From Escherichia coli (GTDB lineage: Bacteria > Pseudomonadota > Gammaproteobacteria > Enterobacterales > Enterobacteriaceae): 64,000 bases of DNA. The translations under genes and the position numbers were made by a program. The stretch's first letter is position 1. Each line of letters opens with the position of its first letter. This document shows positions 8,402 through 28,063 of this stretch, piece by piece. The DNA lies in the NCBI RefSeq assembly GCF_024223415.1, contig NZ_CP100502.1; one strand, written 5' to 3'. The notes beneath the pieces are model-generated. The model was not told the origin of the DNA. It did no database searches and saw only the letters and a program-made list of their open reading frames with translations.

Positions 8402-8412
8402 GGGGAGAGAGT

Positions 8413-9668: not shown

Positions 9669-9726
9669 TGACACTGGCGGGGTAAATCCCCGCCTTTTTC
9701 CTGCCGGTCCCCGGACAGAGCACAAA

Positions 9727-10057: not shown

Positions 10058-10085
10058 GAATATGTGAACAACGGAGGAATACATC

Positions 10086-10511: not shown

Positions 10512-10557
10512 TTAACGGACGGGGCGGCAATGCCGCCCCTGTAAAGGAGACGAGAAA

Positions 10558-10980: not shown

Positions 10981-11168
10981 ATATCAGCACAGAAACCCGC
11001 GAAATTCTGCGTAATTACAGGGCCGTGATTAATGCGCGGCGTCGTGAAATGGGGCAGAAACCGCTCACCACCGCGCAGATTGTTGATGAAATCTGCGATT
11101 TTGTGGCGAATCAGCAGGCGGTTTTCCTGGGCGGTCACTACATCTTACAGGGCAGCAGAAACAGGTGA
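10977..11168 (+). CDS. Hypothetical small protein
   Basis: seq: 63-aa ORF overlapping the preceding stop (ATGA). Confidence 0.3.
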   Translation: MNISTETREILRNYRAVINARRREMGQKPLTTAQIVDEICDFVANQQAVFLGGHYILQGSRNR

Positions 11169-11199
11169 TACAGGGGCAGGCGGTGGAGGCCGCCTGTCA

Positions 11200-11905
11200 G
11201 CCCGCGCGAAAACCCCTGGCAGGCTGACGCCTGCCGGAAGGGAAGCGGGCCACGCTGGCGCGTCGCCCGTTACCCTTCCCGTCTGTGATGTGTCTGACTC
11301 AGGAGTGTTTCTTTCTTATGTTATGGAACTGTTCCTGATGTTGTTGTTCCTTTATCTGCTGCTCTGATTCTGACTACTGCAGTGTTGTTCTGTCTGCCGG
11401 GCGCACCTTCGGCTCCCGGCTGCCTGGCGGCATCCGGTCGTCAGGCCCGACTCCGACAGGCAGCTGCTGGCGCACCCGCCAGTCTCCGCCGAACCCGCTG
11501 GCGCGGTTTCGGGCTGTCGCTACGGTCCGATGCGTGAAAACCCGGGCTTGCAGCGACCGTTCCGGTCGCGCCGCCTCTGTCGCGCCGTGACCTGCGCTCC
11601 CTGCACACCTGACGGTGTGTGAGGAAACTGCGCCTGATGGCGCAGCAGTCCTCCCTCCTGCCGCCACCTCTGCGGCCTGTTTCCCGCTGTGGACTTTCCG
11701 GGGGGCAGACGTAACCCCCTCCCGTTCCATCTGTCCAGGGTGAGATGCACCGGCCACAAAATTTTTAGCCATGAACCCGGCAAAAAATTTTGCGTCCGCC
11801 CCCGGACAGCTGTCCCGTGAGGCGGTAAACGGGCCCCCATCGGAAAGGTCCACTGCGGGGAGAAACCCCTGTGAAGTGGACGGCAGGAGGAGCTTTCGCT
11901 CCTCT
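11200..11905 (+). repeat. Family-B ssi/Frpo-like repeat, copy B1
   Basis: seq: long GC-rich repeat shared with 17600..18250 and partly with 20815..21140 (e.g. 'caccttcggctcccggctgcctggcggcatccggtcgtcaggcccgactccgacaggcag'); ends about 70 nt before ssb. Confidence 0.55.
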
Positions 11906-11973
11906 GAAGGGGCACATGAACGTCCCGTCTCCGGTATCCGGTTTATCTCACATCTTTCAGTCAGGAGGTTCTT

Positions 11974-12501
11974 ATGAGTGCACGTGGTATCAACAAGGTC
12001 ATCCTCGTCGGGCGTCTGGGCAATGATCCGGAGGTCCGTTACATCCCCAACGGTGGCGCAGTGGCAAACCTGCAGGTGGCCACGTCAGAAAGCTGGCGCG
12101 ACAAACAGACGGGGGAGATGCGGGAGCAGACGGAATGGCACCGTGTTGTGCTGTTCGGCAAGCTCGCGGAAGTGGCAGGTGAATATCTGCGCAAGGGCGC
12201 GCAGGTCTACATCGAGGGGCAACTCCGTACCCGTAGCTGGGACGACAACGGCATCACCCGCTACATCACTGAAATTCTTGTTAAGACCACGGGCACCATG
12301 CAGATGCTGGGGAGTGCACCACAGCAGAACGCTCAGGCGCAACCGAAGCCTCAGCAGAATGGGCAGCCACAGAGTGCTGACGCGACGAAAAAAGGTGGCG
12401 CGAAAACGAAAGGCCGTGGACGTAAGGCCGCGCAGCCCGAGCCTCAGCCGCAAACGCCGGAGGGGGAGGATTACGGGTTTTCAGACGACATCCCGTTCTG
12501 A
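11974..12501 (+). CDS. ssb: Plasmid single-stranded DNA-binding protein
   Basis: seq: '[48 protein letters not shown]...' is the canonical SSB OB-fold, with Gln/Pro-rich tail ending 'DIPF'; AGGAGG RBS. Confidence 0.95.
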
Positions 12502-12516
12502 TCGGGCTGACTGTGA

Positions 12517-12792
<276 letters not shown>

Positions 12793-12850
12793 GAGAGGTG
12801 CCGGACGCGCGAACGTCCGGCAGGACATAAGCAATTATAAGGGGATGATT

Positions 12851-14809
12851 ATGCCTGTAACGAAGTGTGAACCAGAAACCACCCGCAAAGCAAGCCGTAA
12901 ATCTGCAAAAACGCAGGAAACTGCCCTGTCTGCCCTGCTGGCGCAGACGGAGGAAGTGAGCGTGCCGCTGGCCTCACTGATTAAATCACCGCTGAATGTG
13001 CGCACGGTGCCGTATTCTGTGGAGTCCGTCAGCGAACTGGCTGGGTCCATTAAGGGCGTTGGCCTGTTGCAGAATCTGGTCGTGCATACCCTGCCTGGTG
13101 ACCGTTACGGTGTCGCCGCAGGTGGTCGCCGACTGGCTGCACTCAACATGCTGGCAGAGCGCAACATCCTTCCGGCTGACTGGCCTGTCCGTGTGAAGGT
13201 CATCCCGCAGGAACTGGCGACTGCCGCATCGATGACCGAGAACGGTCATCGTCGGGATATGCACCCTGCCGAACAGATTGCCGGATTCCGCGCATTGGCG
13301 CAGGAAGGCAAAACACCTGCACAGACTGGCGACCTGCTGGGCTATTCACCCCGCCACGTTCAGCGAATGCTGAAACTGGCAGACCTTGCGCCTGTCATCC
13401 TCGATGCGCTGGCAGAGGACCGCATCACCACCGAGCACTGTCAGGCGCTGGCGCTGGAGAGCGACACCGCGCGTCAGGTGCAGGTGTTTGAAGCGGCCTG
13501 CCAGTCAGGATGGGGCGGTAAACCGGATGTGCGGGTTATCCGCAACCTGATTACGGAAAGTGAAGTGGCAGTGAAGGACAACACTAAATTCCGCTTTGTG
13601 GGGGCTGATGCCTTCTCGCCAGACGAATTGCGCACCGATTTGTTCAGCGATGACGGGGACGGTTATGTCGACCGCGTGGCGCTCGATGCCGCCCTGCTGG
13701 AAAAACTCCAGGCTGTTGCAGAGTTCCTTCGGGAAGCCGAAGGCTGGGAATGGTGCGCCGGGCGCATGGAGCCTGTCGGTGAGTGCCGTGAGGATGCCGG
13801 AACATACCGCTGTCTGCCGGAGCCGGAAGCGGTGCTGACGGAGGCGGAAGACGAACGCCTGAACGAACTGATGACGCGTTACGACGCGCTGGAAAACCAG
13901 TGTGAGGAATCCGACCTGCTGGAAGCAGAAATGAAGCTGATGCGCTGCATGGCGAAGGTCAGAGCGTGGACGCCGGAGATACGTGCCGGAAGCGGTGTGG
14001 TGGTGTCCTGGCGTTATGGCAACGTATGTGTCCAGCGTGGTGTGCAGTTGCGCAGTGAAGATGACGCGACTGACGACGCTGACCGCACGGAACAGGTGCA
14101 GGAGAAAGCGTCAGTGGAGGAAATCAGCCTGCCGTTGCTGACGAAAATGTCCTCAGAGCGCACGCTGGCAGTCCAGGCGGCACTCATGCAGCAGCCGGAC
14201 AAATCTCTGGCACTGCTGGCATGGACGCTCTGCCTGAATGTGTTTGGCAGCGGGGCGTACAGTAAACCAGCACAAATCAGCCTGGAATGTGAACATTATT
14301 CGCTGACCAGCGATGCGCCATCGGGGAAGGAAGGTGCCGCATTCATGGCGCTGATGGCAGAAAAATCCCGTCTTGCAGCCCTGCTGCCGGAGGGATGGTC
14401 ACGGGACATGACGACATTCCTGTCCCTCAGTCAGGAGGTGCTGTTATCCCTGCTCAGTTTCTGCACCGCATGCAGCCTTAACGGTGTCCAGACCCGTGAG
14501 TGTGGTCACACGTCACGCAGTCCGCTTGACTCGCTGGAAAGCGCTATCGGATTCCACATGCGCGACTGGTGGCAGCCGACAAAAGCAAACTTCTTCGGAC
14601 ACCTGAAAAAGCCGCAGATTATCGCAGCCCTGAATGAGGCCGGACTGTCCGGTGCCGCACGGGACGCGGAGAAGATGAAGAAAGGTGATGCGGCTGAACA
14701 TGCAGAGCACCATATGAAAGACAACCGCTGGGTTCCAGGCTGGATGTGTGCACCACATCCACAGACAGATGCCACTGAACGCACCGATAACCTGGCTGAT
14801 GCCGCCTGA
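12851..14809 (+). CDS. Large ParB/Sulfiredoxin-domain (ParB-like nuclease) protein
   Basis: seq: N-terminal ParB-like region 'LIKSPLNVRTVPYSVESVSELAGSIKGVGLLQNLVVH...GGRRLAALNML'; AAGGGG RBS before ATG 12851 (track from 12761). known: a large ParB-like gene sits between ssb and psiB in F/IncI leading regions. Confidence 0.7.
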   Translation: MPVTKCEPETTRKASRKSAKTQETALSALLAQTEEVSVPLASLIKSPLNVRTVPYSVESVSELAGSIKGVGLLQNLVVHTLPGDRYGVAAGGRRLAALNMLAERNILPADWPVRVKVIPQELATAASMTENGHRRDMHPAEQIAGFRALAQEGKTPAQTGDLLGYSPRHVQRMLKLADLAPVILDALAEDRITTEHCQALALESDTARQVQVFEAACQSGWGGKPDVRVIRNLITESEVAVKDNTKFRFVGADAFSPDELRTDLFSDDGDGYVDRVALDAALLEKLQAVAEFLREAEGWEWCAGRMEPVGECREDAGTYRCLPEPEAVLTEAEDERLNELMTRYDALENQCEESDLLEAEMKLMRCMAKVRAWTPEIRAGSGVVVSWRYGNVCVQRGVQLRSEDDATDDADRTEQVQEKASVEEISLPLLTKMSSERTLAVQAALMQQPDKSLALLAWTLCLNVFGSGAYSKPAQISLECEHYSLTSDAPSGKEGAAFMALMAEKSRLAALLPEGWSRDMTTFLSLSQEVLLSLLSFCTACSLNGVQTRECGHTSRSPLDSLESAIGFHMRDWWQPTKANFFGHLKKPQIIAALNEAGLSGAARDAEKMKKGDAAEHAEHHMKDNRWVPGWMCAPHPQTDATERTDNLADAA

Positions 14810-14863
14810 TGAACAACCACACCGCCCCGCCGGAGACGGGGCGGCAGCAAGGGAGATACCGTG

Positions 14864-15298
14864 ATGAAAACTGAACTGACCCTGAATGCCCTGCAGTCCA
14901 TGAACGCACAGGAATATGAAGATATCCGTGCTGCGGGAAGCGATATGCGCCGTAATCTCACTCACGAGGTGATGCGTGAAGTGGACGCACCGGCTAACTG
15001 GATGATGAATGGCGAGTATGGCAGTGAGTTCGGGGGCTTTTTCCCCGTCCAGGTTCGTTTCACGCCAGCCCACGAACGTTTCCACCTGGCATTATGTTCG
15101 CCGGGAGACGTCTCTCAGCTCTGGATGCTGGTTCTGGTGAATTGTGGTGGACAGCCTTTCGCCGTCGTTCAGGTGCAACATATCTTCACGCCTGTCGCTA
15201 TCAGTCACACGCTGGCGCTTGCCGCGACACTTGATGCGCAGGGGTACAGTGTTAACGACATCATCCATATCCTGATGGCAGAAGGAGGTCAGGCATGA
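14864..15298 (+). CDS. psiB: Plasmid SOS-inhibition protein B
   Basis: seq: 144 aa '[32 protein letters not shown]...' recognised as PsiB; GGGAGA RBS; overlaps psiA by ATGA. Confidence 0.9.
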
Positions 15299-16014
15299 GC
15301 GCACGTTCACGGGCACTGATCCCCCTCAGCGCAGAGCAACAGGCCGCCATGCAGGCTGTGGCTGTCACCGAACAACGTCGTCGTCAGGGACGCACACTTT
15401 CAGCATGGCCTTATGCCAGCGCTTTCTTTCGCTGCCTGAATGGCAGTCGCCGGATTTCGCTGACCGATCTCCGCTTTTTTGCTCCTGCGCTGACGAAGGA
15501 GGAATTTCATGGCAACCGTCTCCTGTGGCTGGCTGCCGTGGATAAACTGATTGAAAGTTTTGGTGAAGTCTGTGTTCTTCCCCTGCCATCCGATGCGGGG
15601 CATCGTCTGTTCCCGTCCGTTCCTTTTCGTGAAGGTGAGCGGCGTCGTCAGAAAACCACGCTGACAGAGCAGAAATACAGCCGCCAGCGGGAACGTGAGG
15701 CAGAACGACGGGAACTGGAATACCAGACATGTTTTGCTCAGGCGCAGATTGACCTTGCGTTTCATACTCCCGCCACGGTCGGAAGCTGGTTGTCCCGCTG
15801 GTCTGGTGTTGTTGAGGAGCATGATCTGGAAACGATTTTCTGGGGGTGGTGCGGGCGTTTTCCATCACTGTCATCATTTGACCGGTTTTTCTGGCAGGAG
15901 GAACCACTCTGGCGGCTGATTTTTGAAGCCGGTGAGGCCGGTCGTGGTGCACCGGTACAGGTACGTGCACTTGAGCAGTGGATGATCCCGAACAAGCTGG
16001 AGAACGCAATATGA
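15295..16014 (+). CDS. psiA: Plasmid SOS-inhibition protein A
   Basis: seq: 239 aa directly coupled to psiB; size and position match PsiA. Confidence 0.85.
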
Positions 16015-16607
16015 TGAAATCAGACGAACAATATCAGGTTCCCGTGTGGATGCGACCTCTGTTGCCGTTGCTCTGCAATACCGGTGGTAATGATCCGGAG
16101 GAACTGCTGAATGATACAGAAACCACCGCCAGTGCGAATATTGTCCGTTATGTACTGATAGTTGCAGTGCGGTCGCAGATTGATCTGCTGCAGCTACTGT
16201 ACAGGAAAGGACTGTTGCGCACAGAGATACCAGGTGGCTTTTCACCGGAAGAAGCGCAGGAACTCCTGGATAATCTGGTGCGCAGCCATATCAGCAAGGC
16301 GTTGTCGGGTGAGCGAATGGCAGCCCGTGACAGAAATGCCGATCTGACCTGGATTCGCCAGCAACTGGTCGATGCCGCCTGGTTTGTCCGTGCCACACTG
16401 GAAGCGCATGGGATGGGCGTCGGAAATGAGAGTCCCTCTGCTCCGCCGGAGACAATGCCGGACATACAGACACGGGAACTGGTTATGTTGATCAAGCGAC
16501 TGGCATCATCGCTGAAAGCGGTGAAACCCGACAGTAGCGTGGTGCGTGAAGCGCAGGACTGGCTGTGCGACAGAAAACTTGTGGATATCACAGATATTCT
16601 CCGGTGA
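16011..16607 (+). CDS. Hypothetical protein
   Basis: seq: ATG 16011 overlaps the psiA stop (track ORF from 15978). Confidence 0.45.
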   Translation: MMKSDEQYQVPVWMRPLLPLLCNTGGNDPEELLNDTETTASANIVRYVLIVAVRSQIDLLQLLYRKGLLRTEIPGGFSPEEAQELLDNLVRSHISKALSGERMAARDRNADLTWIRQQLVDAAWFVRATLEAHGMGVGNESPSAPPETMPDIQTRELVMLIKRLASSLKAVKPDSSVVREAQDWLCDRKLVDITDILR

Positions 16608-16710
16608 ACCAGACATGTATATTTTACGCAGGGACACGCCGATCATGATCGTTTCATATCAGGGGTGGTCTGGAGGTCATGCGGCGTGTCCTCTGCACTC
16701 GCCGGAATAA

Positions 16711-17041
16711 GGAAGTCGCCGGCGGCTCCGCTTTTACCCGGCCATGCGGGGCATGGCCTTGTGGGTTTTCAGCTCTGTGGCCTCAGCGTCGTGTGCGGGC
16801 TGTGCCGTGCCTCCATCTTAGCCGGGCTGGCAGGGATGCAAGGGTACGCTTCGCCGCTGCGGTCACCCGGTCCCTCCTTCCCGTCTGCCGTGATTTTCCG
16901 GTCGTTCACCCGCTCAGATTTCGCGGTCTCACCCTCCAACTCCCGCCAGCCGTGTGCGTCAGGCTGCGGCTTCCCTTGCGCCCTGTGCATCCCCGCCTTA
17001 TCGCCCGGCTTTTATGGAGGCACGGCACCGCCCGGTGTCGC
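16711..17041 (+). repeat. Family-A ssi/Frpo-like repeat, copy A2
   Basis: seq: near-identical to 9727..10057; ends about 30 nt before ardA. Confidence 0.6.
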
Positions 17042-17069
17042 AGAACATGTGACTATGGAGGATTCGGGA

Positions 17070-17570
17070 ATGTCTGTTGTTGCACCTGCTGTATACGTTG
17101 GAACCTGGCACAAATACAACTGTGGAAGCATCGCTGGCCGCTGGTTTGACCTGGCCACGTTTGATGATGAACGCGACTTTTTCGCCGCCTGCCGCTCTCT
17201 TCACCAGGATGAAGCCGATCCTGAACTGATGTTTCAGGATTATGAGGGATTCCCGGGGAATATGGCCTCAGAATGCCATATCAACTGGGCCTATGTTGAA
17301 GGCTTCCGCCAGGCGCGGGATGAAGGCTGCGAAGAGGCTTATCGTCTCTGGGTGGATGATACCGGTGAGACGGATTTTGACACCTTCCGCGATGCCTGGT
17401 GGGGCGAGGCTGACAGTGAGGAGGCTTTTGCGGTTGAGTTCGCCAGTGATACCGGCCTGCTGGCTGACGTGCCGGAGACGGTGGCGCTCTATTTTGACTA
17501 TGAGGCGTATGCGCGGGATTTATTCCTGGACTCCTTCACCTTTATTGACGGTCATGTGTTCCGTCGGTGA
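17070..17570 (+). CDS. ardA: ArdA antirestriction protein (type I R-M inhibitor, DNA mimic)
   Basis: seq: 166 aa '[28 protein letters not shown]..' recognised as IncI1 ArdA, acidic C-terminal half; GGAGG RBS. Confidence 0.9.
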
Positions 17571-17599
17571 TTTACTCCCCCGCTCCGGCGGGGGTATGG

Positions 17600-18250
17600 C
17601 CTGCCAGGCCGCCGGAAAACCCTGGCAGGCTTACGCCTGCCTGAAATGCAGGAGGGCCGCGCCTGCGGCGCTGCCCTTCCTGCCCGTCATGGTGTGAGGC
17701 ATTTTTCTGTTATGTCGTTTCTGTTGTTCTGATTTCCGGAGGCGGGGACACCTTCGGCTCCCGGCTGCCTGGCGGCATCCGGTCGTCAGGCCCGACTCCG
17801 ACAGGCAGCTGCTGGCGCACCCGCCAGTCTCCGCCGAACCCGCTGGCGCGGTTTCGGGCTGCCGCTACGGTCCGATGTCTGAAAAACCAGGCTTGCAGCG
17901 ACCGTTCCGGTCGCGCCGCCCCTGTCGCGCCGGAAACGGCGCTCCCTGCACACCTTACGGTGTGTAAGGCAACTGCGCCTGATGGCGCAGTCAACCCTTC
18001 CGCCGCCACCCCTGCGGCCTGTTTCCCGCTGTGGACTTTCCGGGGGCTGGAGTAACCACATCCCGTTTCAGCAGTCCAGGGGAAGATATACCGTCCACAA
18101 AATTTTTAGCCATAAACCCGGCAAAAAATTTTGCGTCCGCCCCCGGACAGCTGCCCCGTGACGTGGTGACGGACGCCCCATCGGAAAGGTCCACTGCGGG
18201 GAGAAACCCCGAAGAAGTGGACGGCAGAAGGGGCTTTCGCCCCTCCGGGG
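17600..18250 (+). repeat. Family-B ssi/Frpo-like repeat, copy B2
   Basis: seq: aligns along its length with 11200..11905; starts right after the ardA stop. Confidence 0.55.
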
Positions 18251-18298
18251 AGCAACCGGTCGGCCCGGCGACCTGATTCAGCAGAAGGAGATGTTTTC

Positions 18299-18733
18299 AT
18301 GACAGTCAGCAGCACGATTTCCGTTTTTTGCCGCGACGGGGTGTTCCGTACCGTTTACTGCCACCTGCACGGGGAGCCGACCTGGAACGGTCGCATCCTG
18401 CATACTCACTATGCCACCGGTCAGCAGGCCGAAGCCCTGGTTGAACACGGTGATATCCGTTGCCTCGGTCCCCGTTGTGACAAACCCGCCGGGCATACGC
18501 TTCAGAACCCGGTGGACGGTGTGACGGCTTATTACGGACGTGACAGTGGTTTCCGGATGGACAGTGAGGCGCGTGAGTACCGTTCTTTCAGGGAGGCTAT
18601 TGCCACTGAAAGCACTGAAGAGGTGCGCTTCCATTATGTGTTCATCGACGGCTACTGGAAGGTGATGTACCGCACGCCGGAAGGCTGGAAGATGAAAGCG
18701 CTCGCGCTGGCACTGCGTCGCTGTCCGAAATGA
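18299..18733 (+). CDS. Hypothetical protein
   Basis: seq: 144 aa with strong AGAAGGAG RBS, first gene downstream of copy B2. Confidence 0.5.
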   Translation: MTVSSTISVFCRDGVFRTVYCHLHGEPTWNGRILHTHYATGQQAEALVEHGDIRCLGPRCDKPAGHTLQNPVDGVTAYYGRDSGFRMDSEAREYRSFREAIATESTEEVRFHYVFIDGYWKVMYRTPEGWKMKALALALRRCPK

Positions 18734-18824
18734 AAAAAAGGCAGGGCGATAAACCCTGCCTCTCTCCGCCGTTACTTCCCCGCCAGGAAGAGCGGCAGTC
18801 ATCAACAACATAAGGAGTAATATT

Positions 18825-19091
18825 GTGAGACCATCAATTATCTTCGCAACCGCCGAGTATGTAAAGCGTCTGCGTGAAGAGTGCCTGCGGGAGAATAAAC
18901 CCCTGCACCGCCATACCCGCTTCAGACGTCAGGAGCTGGCACAGGATGAGATTAACCCGGACGTCCTGGCGATGAGCGGCCATATCGCCAGACGCTGCAG
19001 TGAGCAGAAGCGGGTGCGTATCCCCGCTATGAAAGTCAGCGAATGGGGCCACCTGCTCCGCGCGCTTGAAATTGAGCGGGTCTGCCACTGA
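18825..19091 (+). CDS. Hypothetical small basic protein
   Basis: seq: 88 aa, GTG start with AAGGAG RBS. Confidence 0.4.
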   Translation: MRPSIIFATAEYVKRLREECLRENKPLHRHTRFRRQELAQDEINPDVLAMSGHIARRCSEQKRVRIPAMKVSEWGHLLRALEIERVCH

Positions 19092-19155
19092 TTAACCCTT
19101 GCCGTCTGCCTGTGCAGGCGGCAGGATACGTTCAGACATCTCACCAGGAGGAACC

Positions 19156-20097
19156 GTGAGTAAGAAGAAAAACACCACAACGCCCACGCCGCATGATGCC
19201 GCGTTCCGGTCGTTCCTGGCGAATCCCGACGTCGCCAGAGATTTTCTGGAACTGCATCTTCCTGCGGAGTACCGGCAGTTGTGCGACCTGTCCACGCTGA
19301 AGCTGGAACCCGCCACCTTTGTTGAGCCGGACCTGCATCAGTACGCCAGCGATATCCTCTGGAGCGTGAAAACCACCGGGGGTGAAGATGGTTATGTTTA
19401 TACGCTCATCGAGCACCAGAGCACCGAAAATCTGTACATGCCTTTTCGCATGTTACGCTACAGTGTGGCGGCGATGCAGAGACATCTGGAGCAGCACAAA
19501 ACGTTGCCACTGGTCATTCCGGTGCTGTTCTATCACGGTGAGCGCAGCCCGTACCCGTACAGCATGAACTGGCTGGACTGTTTTGAGAATCCGGCGCTTG
19601 CGGCTAAAATATACACAAAGCCGTTTCCGCTGGTTGATATCACTGTCGTTGATGACAATGAAATCATGAACCATCGCCGGATGGCCGCACTGACGCTGCT
19701 GATGAAGCATATCCGTCAGCGGGATATGCTGATGTGTCTGGACAACCTGGTCAGAGCACTGCAGGACATCCAGGATGAAGAGCAGATTACAGTTCTTTTC
19801 AACTATCTGCTTAATGGCAGCGAACATGTAACGGTTGAATTTTTGCAGACGCTGGCGCAGCGACTGCCGCAGCACGAGGACAGCATTATGACACTGGCAG
19901 AACGTCTTAAGCAGGAAGGTATCCAGCAAGGTATCCAGCAGGGTATCCAGCAGGGTATCCAGCAGGGAGTTCAGCAGGGGGCGCTTCAAAAAGCACGGGA
20001 AATCGCCCGGGAGCTCCGGAACGCGGGAATGCCGGCAGCACAAATCTGTCAGCTGACCGGACTTTCTGAAGCTGAACTGAAGAACATCACTCACTGA
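19156..20097 (+). CDS. rpn: Rpn-family (YhgA-like, PD-(D/E)XK) recombination-promoting nuclease
   Basis: seq: GTG 19156 with CAGGAGG RBS (track from 19099); N-terminal 'HDAAFRSFLANPDVARDFLELHLP...YASDILWSV...YTLIEHQSTE' matches the YhgA/Rpn family from memory. Confidence 0.75.
   Translation: MSKKKNTTTPTPHDAAFRSFLANPDVARDFLELHLPAEYRQLCDLSTLKLEPATFVEPDLHQYASDILWSVKTTGGEDGYVYTLIEHQSTENLYMPFRMLRYSVAAMQRHLEQHKTLPLVIPVLFYHGERSPYPYSMNWLDCFENPALAAKIYTKPFPLVDITVVDDNEIMNHRRMAALTLLMKHIRQRDMLMCLDNLVRALQDIQDEEQITVLFNYLLNGSEHVTVEFLQTLAQRLPQHEDSIMTLAERLKQEGIQQGIQQGIQQGIQQGVQQGALQKAREIARELRNAGMPAAQICQLTGLSEAELKNITH
19888..20097 (+). CDS. Candidate intragenic small protein (RpnS-like), in frame with the rpn C-terminus
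   Basis: seq: internal ATG 19888 preceded by GAGGA at 8 nt spacing; would encode 'MTLAERLKQEG(IQQG)n...ALQKAREIARELRNAG...'. infer: by analogy with Rpn/RpnS intragenic pairs. Confidence 0.3.
   Translation: MTLAERLKQEGIQQGIQQGIQQGIQQGVQQGALQKAREIARELRNAGMPAAQICQLTGLSEAELKNITH
19919..19978 (+). repeat. Five tandem 12-bp repeats (ggtatccagcag) encoding (GIQQ)n within rpn
   Basis: seq: ggtatccagcaa, ggtatccagcag x3, ggagttcagcag in tandem. Confidence 0.9.
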
Positions 20098-20109
20098 TGA
20101 GAGCCAAAA

Positions 20110-20134
20110 GGCCCGGCAAAATGCCGGGCCTTTT
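20110..20134 (+). terminator. Rho-independent terminator after rpn
   Basis: seq: perfect 9-bp stem 'ggcccggca'/'tgccgggcc', 3-nt loop, then TTTT. Confidence 0.7.
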
Positions 20135-20158
20135 GCCAGCAGGAGCAGAGAAAACAGT

Positions 20159-20329
20159 ATGACGATTGCAGAACGTCTTATACAGAAAGGTTTTGAAAAA
20201 GGTGCTCTTGAAGTGGCGCGGGAAATAGCCTGCCGGCTTCGGGATATGGGCTGGACGCCGGAACGGATTCAGGAGGCCACGGGACTTTCCGGTGAAGAAC
20301 TGAAAAAACTGTTTCCTGATGAGCAGTAG
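20159..20329 (+). CDS. Free-standing small protein resembling the Rpn C-terminal tail (RpnS-like)
   Basis: seq: 56 aa 'MTIAERLIQKGFEKGALEVAREIACRLRDMGWTPERIQEATGLSGEELKKLFPDEQ' aligns with the rpn tail 'MTLAERLKQEG...GALQKAREIARELRNAGMPAAQICQLTGLSEAELKNITH'; AGGAG upstream; below the track's 60-aa cutoff. Confidence 0.5.
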   Translation: MTIAERLIQKGFEKGALEVAREIACRLRDMGWTPERIQEATGLSGEELKKLFPDEQ

Positions 20330-20359
20330 CCTGGCATTCTGCCAGGCTGTGAACCACGC

Positions 20360-20611
20360 TCACACATCCTCTGCCGTTTCCCCCAGTTCATTTTCCAGAC
20401 GCCTGATGATATCTGCCTTGCGCATCCCCTGCATGTGAGGCAGCAGGTCACGGACTGAAAGTGCCTGGGTGGTCCTCCAGACGGTGACATCCACCTGTTC
20501 CGCATTTTCCCAGGCGTGCCATGTTCTCTGTGTCACGCCAAATTCTCTGGCCGCTTTTTCGCGTGACCAGAGCATGCTTTTTCGCCAGATTCGCAGTTCC
20601 CAGCCGGTCAT
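20360..20611 (-). CDS. Small helix-turn-helix regulator
   Basis: seq: 83 aa; 'REKAAREFGVTQRTWHAWEN' looks like an HTH; one of only two minus-strand genes in the leading region. Confidence 0.5.
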   Translation of the reverse strand: MTGWELRIWRKSMLWSREKAAREFGVTQRTWHAWENAEQVDVTVWRTTQALSVRDLLPHMQGMRKADIIRRLENELGETAEDV

Positions 20612-20625
20612 AAAACACCTTTGAA

Positions 20626-20712
20626 AAAGTGAAAAAACTTCACTTTATTTTATCACCATAACCACCAAATCAGCGCGAAAAATAAGTGTGAAAAAGTGAA
20701 GGAATTTCACTT
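20626..20712. promoter_or_regulatory. Two palindromic operator-like sites AAGTGAA-N5-TTCACTT upstream of the HTH gene
   Basis: seq: palindromes at 20627..20645 and 20694..20712. Confidence 0.4.
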
Positions 20713-20814
20713 TTTTTGATTGTAGGTGTCGTGCTGTTTTCTCTGTTTTCACCTGTGCGGGAGTGGTGTGCCAGTGACCACCACATGCCATTGTTGCGCC
20801 GTCGTTTTTCTTCA

Positions 20815-21140
20815 GTCGCGCCGGATGCGGCGCTCCCTGCACACCTTACGGTGTGTAAGGCCACTGCGCCTGATGGCGCAGCTGTCTCTGCCTGTCTGCC
20901 GCCGCACTGCGGCCTGTTCTCCGCAGATGGACTTTCCGGGGGTACATACACGACCACATCCCGTTTCAGTCGTCCAGGGGAGAGATGTACCAGCCACAAA
21001 ACTTTTTGCCGCAGGCGTCAAAAACTTTTGCGTCTGCCCCCGGACAACTGCCCCGTGACGTGGTGAGCGTCCCCCGTCGGAAAGGTCCACTGCGGGGAAA
21101 TCCCCGAAGACCCGGACGGCAGAAGGAGCTTCGCTCCTCC
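20815..21140 (+). repeat. Family-B ssi/Frpo-like repeat, copy B3 (5'-truncated)
   Basis: seq: matches the 3' two-thirds of B1/B2 from 'ggcgctccctgcacaccttacggtgtgtaagg' onward. Confidence 0.5.
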
Positions 21141-21187
21141 GGGAAATGACCTGGCTGACCCGGCAGTCGTGACGATGAGGAGACAAT

Positions 21188-22039
21188 GTGATGAATCAGA
21201 CTTTACCCACTGCTGACCTGAATACTGCCGGCACGACAGATGTTATTCCGTCTGTGGCCATCGACCGCATCATCGCGCAGCGTAACGAAGGTATTGCACT
21301 GTTCATGCAGGCGATGGAATGCCTGGCGACAGCGCGCAGGATTCTGCTTGATGCGTCAGGTGATATTTTTCTTTACGGTTTTGAAGACTGCGTGACCGAC
21401 TCCGTTCGGTGCATGGATAAACCGGAAGAAGCGAAAAGGAATATCACCCGTCTTGCCGACCGGAAAATCTGGGACCGCCTGATGACGGATACGGGGATGT
21501 ACACCTTCATGAGTTCATGTCAGCGTGATGAGTGGAACAGCCAGCTGATGAGCGACACCTGTCCTGAAATCACCCTGGACAATGTACTGGCAACTTTTCG
21601 CCATCTGAATGCCAGTAAGATGCAGACATTTGAACAGGGACTGATTGATGTCTACCGGAAATTGTCATGGGATTACAGAACCAATAATCCCTGCCGTCTG
21701 GGCAAGAGAATCATTATTGAAAACCTGCTGTACCGCTGGAGTAACGGGCGTGTTACGCTGGACTGCAGCGGACGGGAGGCACTGGATGACCTGGTACGTC
21801 CGTTTTATCTGCTGGAGGGGCGCAACGTTCCTGACTTCCGGAGCAGCATCGGGGCGCAGTACGGTGAATTTATCGGGAACGGCGACAATGTCGGTAAGCT
21901 GTTAGAAGGGGAATATTTTACGGTGCGTGGCTACCAGAAAGGGACCGTACACATTGTCTTTAAGCGTCCTGACCTTGTTGAAAAACTGAATGATATTATT
22001 GCACGGCATTATCCTGGTTCATTGCCGCCACGAGTCTGA
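21188..22039 (+). CDS. Hypothetical protein, oriT-proximal leading-region gene
   Basis: seq: 283 aa with GAGGAG RBS, directly after copy B3. Confidence 0.5.
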   Translation: MMNQTLPTADLNTAGTTDVIPSVAIDRIIAQRNEGIALFMQAMECLATARRILLDASGDIFLYGFEDCVTDSVRCMDKPEEAKRNITRLADRKIWDRLMTDTGMYTFMSSCQRDEWNSQLMSDTCPEITLDNVLATFRHLNASKMQTFEQGLIDVYRKLSWDYRTNNPCRLGKRIIIENLLYRWSNGRVTLDCSGREALDDLVRPFYLLEGRNVPDFRSSIGAQYGEFIGNGDNVGKLLEGEYFTVRGYQKGTVHIVFKRPDLVEKLNDIIARHYPGSLPPRV

Positions 22040-22050
22040 TTAAACAGAAA

Positions 22051-22080
22051 AGCCCTGGTATTTATGCCGGGGCTTTTTTT
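22051..22080 (+). terminator. Rho-independent terminator
   Basis: seq: 'agccc...gggct' stem followed by a T7 run just after the 21188..22039 stop. Confidence 0.5.
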
Positions 22081-22123
22081 CTGTAATCATCATAATATCA
22101 GAACATGATGTGACATTGTCACA

Positions 22124-22459
22124 TCAATTGTTGTTCATATCGATGCCATCTTTCCTGGCTGAATCTGTCTTTTTAGATGCTGTTTTAGAGGAAGAACGGC
22201 GGGATGGCTTTTTCGATTCTGCTTCCCGAATAATGTCACGAAGTGCCTTCTCTCCTACTTCATACCCTGCATTTTTGAGCGTATCACGAACATCTGCCAG
22301 TGTATAACCCTTTGTCCTTACCAGAACAATAATGTCATCACGAATGGCATCAAGAAAATCACGCAATGTTTTCCGTTGAGCGGTGAGATCTGGCAATTCC
22401 GATAAAGCAGCTTTTGCCAGCTGGATGTCATCATCTGAGTAAAATTTTTTAGAAGCCAT
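22124..22459 (-). CDS. Hypothetical protein with Lys/Ser/Arg-rich C-terminal tail
   Basis: seq: ATG 22459 with GGAGAG upstream (track GTG 22465); tail 'KKPSRRSSSKTASKKTDSARK' is histone-like; transcribed divergently from nikA. Confidence 0.4.
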   Translation of the reverse strand: MASKKFYSDDDIQLAKAALSELPDLTAQRKTLRDFLDAIRDDIIVLVRTKGYTLADVRDTLKNAGYEVGEKALRDIIREAESKKPSRRSSSKTASKKTDSARKDGIDMNNN

Positions 22460-22586
22460 TGGCACTTTCTCTCCGTTTCATGTTGAAGTCTGATTTTATC
22501 ATCAAAAACTGACTCCTGGCAGGGCTGCGCCCTGCCTCTGCCGTCTGCATAAGACTATGATGCACAAAAATAACAGGCTATAATGG

Positions 22587-22648
22587 CCTGAAAAACGGGA
22601 CAGGATGTGCAATTGTAATACCGTCACACGCGACGCTATTACAATTGC
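22587..22648 (-). other. oriT: Origin of transfer (oriT) core with 17-bp inverted repeat and nic region
   Basis: seq: minus-strand 'ggtattacaattgcacatcctgtcccgtttttcagg' with arms 22609..22625 and 22632..22648. known: from memory the R64 nic lies in 'CATCCTG|TCCCG'; position upstream of nikA fits. Confidence 0.6.
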
Positions 22649-22692
22649 CATCTGGTCAGGGCTTCGCCCCGACACCCCGTAAGGAGCCTGAA

Positions 22693-23025
22693 GTGAGTGA
22701 TAGTGCGGTAAGAAAGAAAAGTGAGGTACGGCAAAAGACAGTTGTCAGGACACTCAGATTCTCTCCTGTTGAGGATGAAACCATCAGGAAAAAAGCTGAA
22801 GATTCCGGACTTACTGTATCTGCTTACATCCGAAATGCAGCACTGAATAAGCGAATTAACTCCCGTACAGATGATGCTTTTCTGAAGGAGTTAATGAGAC
22901 TGGGAAGGATGCAGAAGCATCTGTTTGTTCAGGGAAAAAGAACCGGTGACAAGGAATACGCAGAAGTGCTTGTTGCCATAACCGAACTTACAAATACATT
23001 GCGTAAACAGTTAATGGAAGGTTGA
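22693..23025 (+). CDS. nikA: Relaxosome accessory protein NikA
   Basis: seq: GTG 22693 with AAGGAG RBS gives 110 aa 'MSDSAVRKKSEVRQKTVVRTLRFSPVEDETIRKKAEDSGLTVSAYIRNAAL', matching R64 NikA in size and sequence from memory. Confidence 0.85.
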   Translation: MSDSAVRKKSEVRQKTVVRTLRFSPVEDETIRKKAEDSGLTVSAYIRNAALNKRINSRTDDAFLKELMRLGRMQKHLFVQGKRTGDKEYAEVLVAITELTNTLRKQLMEG

Positions 23026-23035
23026 GGATTCTCCG

Positions 23036-25735
23036 GTGAATGCAGTCATTCCGAAAAAGAGAAGGGACGGCAAGTCTTCGTTCGAAGACCTGGTATCCTA
23101 CGTCTCTGTCCGGGATGACATGACCGATGAGGAACTGGATTTATCTTCTTCTTCGCAGGCTGAACAACCGCACCGAAGCCGTTTCAGTCGCCTTGTTGAT
23201 TATGCGACACGTCTTCGAAATGAGTCATTCGTGGCGCTGGTTGATGTCATGAAGGACGGCTGCGAATGGGTCAACTTTTATGGTGTCACCTGCTTTCATA
23301 ACTGTACTTCTCTTGAAACTGCCGCTGCAGATATGGAGTACATTGCCCGGCAGGCACACTATGCAAAAGATGACACTGATCCTGTTTTTCACTACATCCT
23401 TTCCTGGCAGTCACATGAAAGCCCGCGTCCGGAACAGATTTATGACAGTGTACGTCATACGCTGAAATCACTCGGCCTTGCCGACCATCAGTATGTCTCT
23501 GCCGTGCATACTGATACAGATAATCTGCACGTCCATGTGGCTGTTAACCGGGTACACCCTGAAACGGGTTATCTGAACCGGTTATCCTGGAGTCAGGAAA
23601 AACTCAGTCGTGCCTGCCGTGAGCTTGAACTGAAGCATGGTTTTGCTCCGGATAACGGTTGCTGGGTCCATGCACCGGGAAATCGTATCGTTCGCAAAAC
23701 CGCCGTTGAACGTGATCGCCAGAACGCGTGGACACGCGGGAAAAAACAAACTTTTCGCGAGTATGTCGCGCAGACAGCGGTCGCTGGTTTACGCAGTGAA
23801 CCTGTAAATGACTGGTTATCCCTGCATCGTCGTCTTGCGGAAGATGGTCTGTACCTGTCTCAGATGGACGGAAAATTTCTGGTGATGGATGGCTGGGATC
23901 GCAACAGGGAAGGTGTACAGCTTGACTCGTTTGGTCCCTCCTGGTGTGCAGAAAAACTCATGAAAAAAATGGGTGACTACACGCCAGTACCAAAAGACAT
24001 TTTCAGCCAGGTGGAAGCACCAGGACGCTATAATCCGGACTTCATTGCCGCTGATGTTCGCCCGGAAAAAATCGCTGAAACAGAAAGTCTGCAGCAGTAT
24101 GCCTGTCGTCATCTTGGAGAACGTCTGCCGGAAATGGCACGGGAAGGACGGCTGGAAAACTGCCAGGCTATTCACCGCACACTGGCTGAAGCGGGATTAT
24201 GGATGCGTGTTCAGCATGGTCACCTGGTTATCTGTGACGGTTATGATCATAACCAGACTCCCGTTCGTGCTGACAGCGTATGGTCGCTGCTGACGCTCGA
24301 CAATGTGAATCAACTCGATGGTGGCTGGCAGCCTGTACCAACAGATATTTTCCGCCAGGTTACGCCAACAGAACGCTTCCGTGGTCGTCGTATGGAGAGC
24401 TGTCCTGCGACCGATAAAGAATGGCACCGTATGCGTACAGGCACGGGGCCGCAGGGGGCTATCAAACGCGAACTGTTTTCTGACAAAGAAAGTCTGTGGG
24501 GATACAGCATCAGCCATTGTAGCCCTCAGATTGAAGAAATGATCACACAGGGTGAGTTTACCTGGCAGCGTTGTCATGAGCTGTTTGCACAACAGGGACT
24601 GATGCTACAGAAACAACATCACGGGCTTGTTGTCGTTGATGCCTTTAATCATGAGCAAACGCCGGTGAAGGCCAGCAGCATTCATCCTGATCTGACACTG
24701 GGGCGTGCAGAGCCACAGGCCGGACCTTTTGTGAGTGCCCCAGCAGATTTGTTTGACAGGGTGCAACCTGAAAGTCGCTATAACCCGGAGCTGGCTGTCA
24801 GTGACAGGTACGGGGTCAGCAGTAAACGTGACCCAATGCTGCGCCGGCAGCGACGTGAAGCCAGAGCTGAGGCCCGTGCTGACCTGCGTGCCCGCTATCT
24901 GGCATGGCGTGAACAATGGCGTAAACCAGATCTGCGTTATGGGGAACGTTGTCGGGAAATTCATCAGGCATGCCGTCTGCGGAAGTCACACATTCGTGCG
25001 CAGTACGATGATCCGGCATTACGTAAGCTGCATTATCACATTGCAGAAGTTCAGCGAATGCAGGCATTGATCAGGCTGAAAGAAGACATCAGGGATGAGC
25101 GACAGAAACTTATTGCTGATGGGAAATGGTATCCACCCTCTTACCGTCAGTGGGTCGAAATTCAGGCTGCTCAGGGAGACAGGGCTGCTGTATCGCAGCT
25201 GAGAGGCTGGGATTATCGCGATCGCCGTAAAGACAGGTCACGCACAACGACGACAGACCGCTGTGTCGTGCTTTGTGAACCGGGCGGAACGCCGGTATAC
25301 GGTAATACCGGTGATCTCGAGGCCCGTCTGCAGAAGAACGGGAGTGTTCGTTTCCGTGACCGTCGGACGGGAGAGTTTGTCTGTACGGATTATGGTGACA
25401 GGGTTGTTTTCCGTAATCACCATGACCGCAATGCGCTGGCAGATAAACTGGATTTGATTGCACCGGTATTATTCGGGCGTGATCCACGCATGGGTTTTGA
25501 ACCAGAAGGAAACGACAAACAATTTAACCAGGTCTTTGCTGAAATGGTTGCCTGGCATAATGTGACAGGCCGTACCGGTCACGAAGACTACAGGATTACG
25601 CGACCGGACGTGGATCATCACCGTGAAGGAAGTGAACGCTACTACCGCGATTATATCGCGGCGAACAGCAACAATGACGCATCACTGCCTCCGCCGGAGC
25701 AGGATAAACGCTGGGAACCGCCTTCTCCAGGTTAA
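23036..25735 (+). CDS. nikB: Relaxase NikB
   Basis: seq: 899 aa right after nikA; His-rich motif 'HTDTDNLHVHVAVNRVHP'; size matches R64 NikB. Confidence 0.9.
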   Translation: MNAVIPKKRRDGKSSFEDLVSYVSVRDDMTDEELDLSSSSQAEQPHRSRFSRLVDYATRLRNESFVALVDVMKDGCEWVNFYGVTCFHNCTSLETAAADMEYIARQAHYAKDDTDPVFHYILSWQSHESPRPEQIYDSVRHTLKSLGLADHQYVSAVHTDTDNLHVHVAVNRVHPETGYLNRLSWSQEKLSRACRELELKHGFAPDNGCWVHAPGNRIVRKTAVERDRQNAWTRGKKQTFREYVAQTAVAGLRSEPVNDWLSLHRRLAEDGLYLSQMDGKFLVMDGWDRNREGVQLDSFGPSWCAEKLMKKMGDYTPVPKDIFSQVEAPGRYNPDFIAADVRPEKIAETESLQQYACRHLGERLPEMAREGRLENCQAIHRTLAEAGLWMRVQHGHLVICDGYDHNQTPVRADSVWSLLTLDNVNQLDGGWQPVPTDIFRQVTPTERFRGRRMESCPATDKEWHRMRTGTGPQGAIKRELFSDKESLWGYSISHCSPQIEEMITQGEFTWQRCHELFAQQGLMLQKQHHGLVVVDAFNHEQTPVKASSIHPDLTLGRAEPQAGPFVSAPADLFDRVQPESRYNPELAVSDRYGVSSKRDPMLRRQRREARAEARADLRARYLAWREQWRKPDLRYGERCREIHQACRLRKSHIRAQYDDPALRKLHYHIAEVQRMQALIRLKEDIRDERQKLIADGKWYPPSYRQWVEIQAAQGDRAAVSQLRGWDYRDRRKDRSRTTTTDRCVVLCEPGGTPVYGNTGDLEARLQKNGSVRFRDRRTGEFVCTDYGDRVVFRNHHDRNALADKLDLIAPVLFGRDPRMGFEPEGNDKQFNQVFAEMVAWHNVTGRTGHEDYRITRPDVDHHREGSERYYRDYIAANSNNDASLPPPEQDKRWEPPSPG

Positions 25736-25741
25736 AAAAAA

Positions 25742-25766
25742 GGCCGCGCCAGAATCCGGCGCGGCC
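25742..25766 (-). terminator. Terminator hairpin between convergent nikB and trbC
   Basis: seq: stem 'ggccgcgcc'/'ggcgcggcc' with an A8 run on the + side (U-run for minus-strand transcripts). Confidence 0.55.
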
Positions 25767-25771
25767 ACTGT

Positions 25772-28063
25772 TCAGTACATTCCGTCCCAGTCCGGACGGT
25801 TGGTTTTTTTATGATGAAACCCGTTTACAGGACGCCCTGTCGGGTGGTTATTGTCCTGTGGAAGCGTTAACAGGTTTATACCTGCTCTTTCTGCTCTCAC
25901 TGATATCTGATTTTCCTCTTTTGTTTCAGGTAGTTCTGGTCTGTTCAGCGTGATATAGCGAATTCGTCGCTCTTCCCGTGTGGTCGTTTTAAGCGTATTC
26001 ACCGCTGTTTCCCACAAGGCACTTTCACGTGCGTTGATATCTGTGTCGTACTCTTCCAGCATTGCCATAGCCGCCTGACGTCCTGCAATGCGTTGCTGGA
26101 ATGTATCCACGATCGTGTGCGGCTCTGTGCGAATTTTTCGTCTTTTTCTGGAGGGTTTTGCAGTCAGGACGCCAATGATGGCACTGACATTTTCCGGTGA
26201 CGGTATTCGACGTTGAGTAGTACGGGGAACAAGACGGCGGAGACGGTCCAGGCGTGGCGCATCCACGCTGATATACCTGTTTATAACAACGGGATCGCTG
26301 CTGCAGCTTTTCTCATCGTCAGGGATGAAGAATGATGCTGATGGTACGGTTTCTCCCCGGAAAATAGAAAAGAACTCGCCAGGATGAAGTTCAATCAACT
26401 CCTGAACATTTATCTTGCTTTCCATCAGGATGCTGATTTGTGGGCTGTCAATCCATGATTCACCAAATATGCCGTCCTGACGCTGCAGGTTGTTCATTCT
26501 CGCCCTGGCTTCTTCACCGGCGGCGCTTTTCAGCGTTCTGGCCGTACTACCCTCGCTGACAATCCTGCCGGCAAATTTTGTCCCCGTGTTCTGCATCAGT
26601 GTTGCAGTATTCGTGGCTGTTGTCTGTCCTTCTATACGTTCCTGGTCCTGTGCCATCAAAATCAGAGCAAAATCCAGTGAACGCACCTGAGTGGCTTCCA
26701 CAGCAATACGGTCCGTATAGTATGCCCCCACTTCATCAAGGAAACACAGATAAGGGAAACGCCCCTTATATTTTTTGACTTCCAGTGCATCGGAATCAGT
26801 TCCTTCGAGGCGGTAGCCCAAATCACGGGCGAGAATCATACTTTTCTGGGTGATAAACATTCGTCCAAGAGCAGACGTTGTATGCGCTGATGTATCCAGA
26901 GCGGGGATCATTACCATCAGAATCCTGTCGCTGTGAATGCTGTCACGGATATCGATATCACCGGAATCTTCAGCAAAAATATCCCCGAATGCTTCCGTGA
27001 ATGTGCTGAAAGTTTCAGAAAACTGCCCGGAGAGATAAGCATGTTGTTTTCTGGGTTCTTCCGTCCAGGCTGATGGTGTCCTGACCAGCGACAGGTCGAA
27101 ACCGGGAACGTCCTGAAGGTAGTTACGTAACGGTGCGATAGCTTCTTCCGGCCACTGATCATCGAGGCCACGACAGTAAAGTTTGGCCATCCCTTCGAGA
27201 GTCATATGTTCACGGAGCATCTGCAGCGACATTGTTTTGCCTTCGCGCACACACCAGAATTTAGTACCAAATACTAGTGCCTTATTCATGGCAATGGCCC
27301 GGGACTGCCACTCGCCCCCCTGGACGTTCTGGGGCAGCATTGACTGCATTGTCTCCGCTGTGAATGCCTCAGTGCTGTAACAGAAGGGATTCCAGGTATT
27401 TGACTGAGGACGCGTTTTTTCACCACTCAGAATGATTTCACTGCGGGATTTTCCTCCGTTCATGAAGTTAATGACTTCCACATCGTCTTCACGTCCAAAG
27501 CGTCTGGCCAGATACCAGATCGTTCTTGCCGTATCATTCTGTGCCTTGCCATCGACAAGGGTGAATCCTCTTGCCCAGCAAAGTGGGTTAATCGCCCAGG
27601 CAAAGATGGTTTCCGTTTTACCGCCACCGGTGGTGGCGAAAAACATTATATGGCGGGTCAGATCGTCCATACTCAGCCATAACTCCCTGCCAATATCCCT
27701 GACGCGTTGATAACCAACATAGAATATGCCGCTGGCCGGTGATTCCAGAATGACCTCATACTGGAACAGGGTTGGCCAGAAGCTGAAAAGACTTCTTTTA
27801 ATCATTCTGTCCTGTGACGGGTCAGCACATTCCAGCGTCATGGGCATACGAAGAGGGCAGCGCCATCGCTGCAGACTAAATACCAGCATTGTTATCAGTG
27901 TGAACAACAGACATGCCGGTAATGCAAGTGGCCAGATAAAACTGGCCACAAGACTTGCCACCAGGCAAAAGCCATAGATATTGAGACTCTGGAGTGCATT
28001 CCAGACAGGATTTCCCCAGGCTGTACGGTGTAAAAGCTCGGGGTTAACGCGATGTTCACTCAT
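25772..28063 (-). CDS. trbC: TrbC, transfer protein with nucleotide-binding motif
   Basis: seq: 763 aa, N-terminal membrane spans, Walker A 'ATTGGGKT'. known: trbABC lies next to nikAB in R64. Confidence 0.75.
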   Translation of the reverse strand: MSEHRVNPELLHRTAWGNPVWNALQSLNIYGFCLVASLVASFIWPLALPACLLFTLITMLVFSLQRWRCPLRMPMTLECADPSQDRMIKRSLFSFWPTLFQYEVILESPASGIFYVGYQRVRDIGRELWLSMDDLTRHIMFFATTGGGKTETIFAWAINPLCWARGFTLVDGKAQNDTARTIWYLARRFGREDDVEVINFMNGGKSRSEIILSGEKTRPQSNTWNPFCYSTEAFTAETMQSMLPQNVQGGEWQSRAIAMNKALVFGTKFWCVREGKTMSLQMLREHMTLEGMAKLYCRGLDDQWPEEAIAPLRNYLQDVPGFDLSLVRTPSAWTEEPRKQHAYLSGQFSETFSTFTEAFGDIFAEDSGDIDIRDSIHSDRILMVMIPALDTSAHTTSALGRMFITQKSMILARDLGYRLEGTDSDALEVKKYKGRFPYLCFLDEVGAYYTDRIAVEATQVRSLDFALILMAQDQERIEGQTTATNTATLMQNTGTKFAGRIVSEGSTARTLKSAAGEEARARMNNLQRQDGIFGESWIDSPQISILMESKINVQELIELHPGEFFSIFRGETVPSASFFIPDDEKSCSSDPVVINRYISVDAPRLDRLRRLVPRTTQRRIPSPENVSAIIGVLTAKPSRKRRKIRTEPHTIVDTFQQRIAGRQAAMAMLEEYDTDINARESALWETAVNTLKTTTREERRIRYITLNRPELPETKEENQISVRAERAGINLLTLPQDNNHPTGRPVNGFHHKKTNRPDWDGMY

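Follow-up and report, generated by a model that had tools for sequence, protein, structure and literature searches.

What is ygfB, a gene on the leading side of the origin of transfer (oriT) of an IncI1-type plasmid, and what might its product do in a recipient cell? The gene, also called ydiA or Hp22, lies on the plus strand of a 64,000-nucleotide stretch of Escherichia coli DNA (contig NZ_CP100502.1, assembly GCF_024223415.1), here termed the window, which carries the classical IncI1 leading region around it. We find that ygfB is a real gene under purifying selection, organised as a self-contained single-gene cassette that consists of a single-stranded DNA (ssDNA) promoter, a strong ribosome-binding site (RBS), an open reading frame (ORF) of 282 amino acids and an intrinsic terminator. 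It is the second gene to enter the recipient and the first for which the incoming strand serves as template. Judged by sequence, its product is the free-standing, methyltransferase-less form of a module that is elsewhere tethered to a small N6-adenine DNA methyltransferase. The features on which this account is built are as follows.

21191..22039, plus strand: ygfB / ydiA / Hp22 coding sequence, 282 amino acids, DUF4942 (ORF list; RefSeq WP_001077047.1; Pfam PF13708).
21177..21182, plus strand: Shine-Dalgarno sequence GAGGAG, 8 nt before the ATG (sequence).
22046..22082, plus strand: intrinsic terminator, a GC-rich hairpin and then a U run, closing the ygfB cassette (RNA fold −26.3 kcal/mol, z −6.6).
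20800..21165, minus strand: predicted class-1 Frpo/ssi-type ssDNA promoter, copy 3 of 3, shortened, driving plus-sense transcription into ygfB (repeat, Frpo homology, ssDNA fold).
20917..21099, minus strand: outer arms of the main hairpin of copy 3, 20917-20938 pairing with 21078-21099 (inverted repeat I2 and minimum-free-energy structure).
22596..22678, minus strand: oriT core with nick motif CATCCTG/T, the slash marking the nick between 22601 and 22600 (sequence; pESBL oriT 70354-70436 transferred via the nikA start as anchor).
About 22611-22646, minus strand: NikA-type inverted repeat after the nick motif (sequence).
22124..22465, minus strand: yggA, in opposite orientation to ygfB and between oriT and ygfB (ORF list, RefSeq).

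The original prediction had placed an uncharacterised plus-strand ORF with a strong RBS at 21188-22039. The frame is intact in the ORF list and the RBS is the GAGGAG listed above; RefSeq shifts the start to the ATG at 21191, giving 282 residues, while the in-frame GTG at 21188 would give 283. A domain search, proposed there as a check, returns Pfam DUF4942 (PF13708) with an expect value (E) of 5.7e-51, residues 91-276 covering model positions 5-189 of 190. Homology extends beyond the Pfam model into the N-terminal helical region, since most representatives of 260-290 residues align over query residues ~15-280, and R31 is kept in 96-97% of both the standalone and the fused subgroups described below. 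The protein is 100% identical to the copy on ColIb-P9 and 98% identical to Hp22 of pESBL-EA11 (O3K_25947), which has the same oriT-side position and orientation. Relative to the pESBL orthologue, the ratio of non-synonymous to synonymous substitution (dN/dS) is 0.08, with 20 synonymous and 6 non-synonymous differences. Full-length homologues are found on more than 5,000 plasmids and form 2,041 clusters at 50% identity, with an unbroken ORF in roughly 4,500 of the top 5,000 plasmid matches, and homologues at 30% identity are spread across Proteobacteria and phages. Nothing sets the copy in this window apart from the rest of the DUF4942/YgfB-YdiA family, which is without known function; the literature searched for DUF4942, ydiA or ygfB with a function contained annotation mentions only. 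The earlier statement that no function could be assigned thus still holds, with the correction that the gene was already annotated as DUF4942, YgfB or YdiA.

The order in which genes enter the recipient follows from the nick site. Relaxases of the MOBP type nick at the consensus YATCCTG/Y. The minus strand at 22596-22612 reads 5′-TTGCACATCCTG/TCCCG-3′, which fits this consensus and is a unique match in the window, and the nick lies inside the stretch that matches the oriT annotated in pESBL (70354-70436). A nick on the minus strand makes this the transferred strand, so that DNA at lower coordinates is the first to enter and the transferred strand serves as template for plus-strand genes. Both the nick between 22600 and 22601 and the direction of entry had been read correctly from the sequence, the former now resting on the unique motif together with the pESBL correspondence. 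ygfB lies on the plus strand on the leading side of oriT, in the same orientation as ssb, psiB and ardA. It had been put forward as the first full gene to enter, which has to be given up because yggA sits between oriT and ygfB: yggA is the true first leading-region gene, but it is not transcribable from the incoming strand. As yggA is on the minus strand, ygfB does keep its place as the most oriT-proximal plus-strand gene. This placement agrees with the survey of Samuel et al. (2024), where the corresponding family 24 (2,171 members, labelled 'Uncharacterized; DUF4942; Methyltransferase') has a median position of 1, counted from 0 for the first ORF, and strand +1, the transferred-strand orientation; in these data the family is statistically enriched beside oriT. 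The yggA product is basic (isoelectric point, pI, 9.4), a promoter-like site precedes the gene at 22522-22493 on the minus strand, and the gene is wrongly entered as 'molybdopterin-guanine dinucleotide biosynthesis protein MobC' in some RefSeq records. Its homologue on the IncM plasmid pCTX-M3, orf35, represses nikAB/tra, and deletion of orf35 raises mobilisation more than 200-fold.

A GC-rich repeat occurs exactly three times in the window (11576-11904, 17924-18249 and 20800-21165; 80-82% identity), the third time upstream of ygfB, and its copies align with Frpo1 and Frpo2 of the F plasmid over the central hairpin. The 'truncated family-B element' noted in the original prediction is copy 3, which is without the ~190 nt that copies 1 and 2 carry at the low-coordinate end. 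As ssDNA, the minus strand at 20790-21190 folds with −110.7 kcal/mol (z −8.4). By sequence homology, the three repeats are the ssi1-3/Frpo 'class 1' ssDNA promoters. On the transferred strand, no −35 and −10 boxes were located by a simple scan, no sigma-70-like plus-strand promoter was predicted upstream of ygfB, and Rfam gave no family in window 9000-26000. In pESBL, which likewise has exactly three class-1 copies, the upstream region is 99% identical to that of ygfB in the window. Wen et al. (2025) describe RNA sequencing of early pESBL transconjugants with six strongly induced leading-region operons, each with a hairpin promoter whose start was mapped by 5′ rapid amplification of cDNA ends, three of these promoters being ssi1-3. 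Because three ssi promoters are reported in pESBL, three class-1 copies are present and one stands before ygfB, we infer by this correspondence that ygfB is one of the six zygotically induced pESBL operons. The behaviour of Frpo/ssi hairpins as transient promoters on the incoming strand, like the set of six induced operons, is taken from the literature; Frpo dependence of leading-gene expression has been reported in F. Long ORFs on both strands within the repeats (20670-21186, 17710-18315 and 11374-11915; for example 20812-21186 on the minus strand, 124 residues) were rejected as artefacts, their 'protein' likeness coming from repeated DNA. A separate direct repeat of 300 nt (9748-10047 and 16733-17032, 98% identical) corresponds to the single-strand promoters that were assigned to 'class 2' in pESBL in 2025; its first copy precedes a KlcA-like antirestriction gene (10086-10511), its second ardA (about 17070-17570).

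To characterise the protein, we turned to structure prediction and to its longer relatives. The model of YgfB is confident and comprises two parts, a helical bundle and then a small alpha/beta domain, which is not a Rossmann fold. Structure searches with this model found no relative among solved structures and no methyltransferase; in the PDB, neither the protein sequence nor a profile built from 54 sequences found a match below E 0.6. The NCBIfam search of YgfB returned no family, PADLOC only a sub-threshold match to a 2TM effector (E 0.004) with no stretch passing, and a Pfam scan of every alignment member no secondary domain. As to the METHYLTRANSFERASE connection, many homologues of 440-600 residues consist of a DUF4942 module followed by a small C-terminal Rossmann domain. 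Its motifs DFFPTP, EPSAGxG and NPPF and its matches to PF05175 and PF02384 identify this extra domain as a gamma-like N6-adenine DNA methyltransferase. The (N/D)PP(F/Y/W) motif is present in the extra domain of 63/63 long homologues; together with the S-adenosylmethionine-binding motif I (xEPxxGxG), it is absent from YgfB and from all 253 of 253 standalone homologues. One fusion was modelled: both of its domains are confident, but residues 273-290 between them form a disordered linker and the predicted template modelling score is only 0.57. The DUF4942 module is therefore predicted to be an autonomous unit and no integral part of the catalytic fold.

Fused and free forms share the core residues R31, D90, W94, D200, R203, H254 and N267, whereas the LSWDYKTNxP motif, D215 and R217 are features of the standalone subgroup and are replaced in most fusions. 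Two catalytic readings of these residues were tried and rejected. An HNH/His-Me finger at H254...N267 would have its histidine on the wrong hairpin strand with too short a spacing, and no nuclease appeared in the fold searches; a Ser-His-Asp triad fails because the fusions do not keep S21 and S159. Many phages and plasmids carry the fused form. The phage family phrog_6263, named 'DNA methyltransferase', has the DUF4942 module at its N-terminus, and across 65 phage records the DUF4942 homologues are mostly annotated as methylases or located in methylase clusters. Fusions occur in the Salmonella phage-plasmid SSU5, Marinomonas phage P12026 and Pseudomonas phage MR15 (gp23), while Halomonas phage QHHSV-1 has a standalone copy within a methylase gene cluster. 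On the Sphingobium plasmid pPBA, a fusion lies among ParB-like, ArdC-like (annotated as a zincin-like metallopeptidase) and Fic-family genes. The fusions share with YgfB the homologous N-terminal module of ~270 residues, the core residues and a location in early or leading regions with many anti-restriction genes, and differ in that YgfB is without the entire C-terminal Rossmann domain. On IncHI2 plasmids there are two DUF4942 loci; at one, on pEC71 (6983-9003), the gene of a distant paralogue (22% identity) overlaps the downstream gene of a 401-residue coiled-coil protein by 4 nt, possibly the system in a two-gene form. The genomic surroundings retrieved for distant homologues were mostly short contigs with small genes that carry no annotation.

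The plasmid itself encodes an M.EcoGIX-like methylase (7496-8179), which was considered as a relative of the fused domain and rejected: the match is confined to 37 residues around motif I (E 0.065). Neither the window nor the IncI1-type plasmid pLH09-a-B encodes any homologue of the fused domain, and on pOXA-48 the DUF4942 module is present with no methylase annotated in the leading region. Because the fused domain is unrelated to the M.EcoGIX-like methylase and absent from the window, and because pOXA-48 has no annotated methylase there, YgfB is probably independent of a plasmid-encoded methyltransferase partner.

What, then, would YgfB do? That it is a candidate for establishment or anti-defence is plausible and agrees with the published view. 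This part of the original prediction is borne out as far as the gene's setting goes, namely its place in the leading region, its transferred-strand template, its own ssDNA promoter and the enrichment of its family beside oriT; a tie to a known anti-defence family was not found. YgfB has no likeness to ArdA, ArdB/KlcA, ArdC or Acr families in Pfam, NCBIfam or significant PADLOC matches, and Samuel et al. (2024) report no DIAMOND or Foldseek match to anti-CRISPR (anti-clustered regularly interspaced short palindromic repeats) or anti-restriction sets for all 2,171 family members. With a pI of 5.75, compared with 4.08 for ArdA, it is unlike a DNA mimic. Relative to ArdA, KlcA/ArdB and the phage restriction-alleviation proteins (lambda Ral, Lar), YgfB is alike in neighbourhood, in the logic of early expression and, for ArdA in the pESBL screen described below, in conditional dispensability, but it has no sequence or fold similarity to them. 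The name 'restriction alleviation protein', given to some of the phage DUF4942 fusions, is an unverified label.

We propose the following sequence of events. Once ~1.8 kb of the minus strand has entered, the hairpin promoter would fold and host RNA polymerase would transcribe ygfB for a short time, which would end when synthesis of the complementary strand abolishes the hairpin. In the recipient, YgfB may then act as a non-catalytic factor between DNA modification and restriction, binding either the incoming plasmid DNA or a methyltransferase/restriction complex, so that the unmodified plasmid would escape restriction. Such a function would be conditional and invisible in matings into permissive laboratory K-12. 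Two published observations weigh against this proposal. The pESBL transposon sequencing (Tn-seq) screen of 2015, with E. coli K-12 as recipient, classed Hp22 as 'non-essential' for transfer at a probability of 1.00, and pO111-CRL115 lost 9.7 kb of its leading region between two Frpo repeats with laboratory conjugation unchanged. The same screen scores ArdA as non-essential, also at 1.00, and is therefore blind to conditional anti-defence genes. A deletion without effect in every recipient background had been named as evidence against an establishment role; the Tn-seq result supplies one negative background, K-12, and not all. Identity, orientation, the cassette, the homology of the module, the lack of catalytic motifs and purifying selection are, on their own, very likely correct. 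The explanation as a whole, in which an early cassette delivers a methyltransferase-less module with a non-catalytic role in restriction evasion, this last part being inferred, is tentative, a serious possibility rather than a probability. It is somewhat doubtful that DUF4942 founds a very widespread class of non-enzymatic restriction-evasion proteins, with a new fold, occurring alone or tethered to a methyltransferase, which would be made within seconds of entry and would shield unmodified conjugative or phage DNA or steer its methylation.

One alternative is that YgfB directly inhibits, by protein-protein binding, a host defence other than restriction-modification, such as CRISPR-Cas, abortive infection or an SOS-linked system, and that the link to methyltransferases reflects shared anti-defence islands. 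Here the divergent neighbour of ygfB has to be considered, a helix-turn-helix (HTH) regulator.

20360..20611, minus strand: HTH regulator (Hp21), 83 amino acids, divergent from ygfB (RefSeq; phrog_6962; Samuel family 22).
20624..20715, no strand assigned: palindrome AAAAAGTGAA-N-TTCACTTTTT, present twice in the interval that separates the HTH gene from the ssi copy (repeats D8, I1/I3).

Judged from their sequence and position, the palindromes are probably operators of the HTH protein, and the layout, an HTH gene divergently upstream of ygfB with two operator-like palindromes, may be of the acr-aca type. In Samuel et al. (2024) the regulator belongs to family 22 (2,333 members, median position 2, strand −1), labelled Aca6-like. 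This label, the enrichment of the ygfB family in the leading region, alongside genes for anti-CRISPRs, anti-restriction proteins and SOS inhibitors, and a new fold (as in many anti-CRISPRs) in a module that folds autonomously would all suit an inhibitor of this kind. However, the label comes from only 3 of the 2,333 family members, those that match the Aca6 model. A protein of 282 residues with 30%-identity homologues across Proteobacteria and phages is also far better conserved and more widely distributed than typical inhibitors of a specific defence, and the physical fusions are specifically to N6-adenine DNA methyltransferases. We regard this alternative as unlikely.

A defence-unrelated role in establishment is likewise improbable. 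YgfB would in that case process the incoming strand, by complementary synthesis or recircularisation, or else reprogramme the host; host reprogramming has recently been suggested in a preprint on YfjB, another leading-region protein. Very early, transient expression from an oriT-proximal ssDNA promoter would fit such a role, as would the Burkholderia islands in which the DUF4942 gene is found alongside DUF932, a YqaJ exonuclease and a Gp3-like recombinase. The positional analogue in F, the Frpo1-driven ygeA/ygeB, matters for conjugation efficiency; it too is the operon nearest oriT, with a homologous single-strand promoter and expression before conversion from single-stranded to double-stranded DNA. 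Its proteins are, however, unrelated to YgfB (F has DUF932 there), and deletion of ygeA lowers F transfer whereas ygfB insertions leave pESBL transfer unlowered. A general role in DNA processing should show in standard matings, for which Tn-seq finds the gene dispensable, and it leaves the repeated methyltransferase fusions unexplained.

It is very unlikely that YgfB acts in the donor, in transfer control or in the relaxosome. The proximity of oriT and the homology of the neighbouring yggA to the pCTX-M3 nikAB/tra repressor orf35 speak for it, but transfer does not need ygfB, insertions are not enriched in the Tn-seq output, and the only promoter predicted upstream is the ssDNA promoter and none for double-stranded DNA. 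Furthermore, the pOXA-48 homologue is ~6 kb from oriT among ssb and antirestriction genes, and homologues occur in phages too.

That YgfB is an orphan DNA methyltransferase is effectively refuted. The idea draws on UniProt-derived names ('Methyltransferase', 'Restriction methylase') in Supplementary Table 1 of Samuel et al. (2024) and on the homology of YgfB to the N-terminal part of real methyltransferase fusions. In those fusions the methyltransferase is the separate C-terminal domain that YgfB is missing; YgfB and the 253 standalone homologues lack both motifs, no methyltransferase Pfam domain is found, and neither the predicted fold nor the structure searches point to one. Database names such as 'Methyltransferase' are misleading for YgfB. 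Selection on the ssi element alone, as a primer or promoter for complementary-strand synthesis with the ORF as passenger, is extremely improbable, for although ssi/Frpo elements also prime DNA synthesis and the gene is dispensable in the laboratory, the low dN/dS, the ORF kept intact in most of the best plasmid matches, the strong RBS and own terminator, and the conservation of the family far beyond Frpo-carrying plasmids all oppose it.

As an object the gene is not new: gene, position and candidate status had been published, with YgfB, YdiA and Hp22 as catalogue names, the Tn-seq screen in 2015 and Samuel family 24 in 2024, and it is annotated in thousands of records. The present analysis adds that yggA enters first, that YgfB is an autonomous methyltransferase-less module whose fold has no solved relative, and a list of its invariant residues. 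The interest of the locus is that the transferred-strand-templated gene nearest oriT, shared by more than 5,000 plasmids and by phages and genomic islands, is under strong purifying selection, and that IncI1, IncL/M (pOXA-48) and related plasmids rank among the main vehicles for extended-spectrum β-lactamase and carbapenemase genes. Were YgfB a factor in establishment or restriction evasion, it would be a widespread addition to the anti-defence repertoire and a possible target against plasmid spread.

The surroundings of ygfB are common to many plasmids. Many IncI1-type plasmids, pLH09-a-B (NZ_CP100546) among them, match the 2.5 kb around the gene at 100% identity, and the block running from the HTH regulator through ssi, ygfB (DUF4942), yggA (the small minus-strand gene), oriT and nikA to nikB is at least 80% present in 1,905 PLSDB records. 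The plus-strand genes of the leading region include a DNA methylase, the KlcA-like antirestriction gene, ssb, psiB, psiA and ardA, followed by oriT-nikAB. The offset between the window and pLH09-a-B changes from 560 to 599 within window 7496-18300, which indicates a 39-bp insertion or deletion between the methylase gene and ssi copy 2. An Rpn-family recombination-promoting nuclease is encoded at 19099-20097 (plus strand), with a (QQGI)n repeat close to its C-terminus; downstream of it, an ORF of 56 residues (20159-20329, plus strand) copies the C-terminal end of the nuclease (repeat 19879-19932 / 20150-20203, 74% identical). The first gene behind ssi copy 2 (18299-18733, plus strand, 144 residues) is Hp16 of pESBL, whose probability of being needed for maintenance in the pESBL Tn-seq was 0.24; it matches phrog_1987 and phrog_23089, phage families without known function, and is another uncharacterised early gene.
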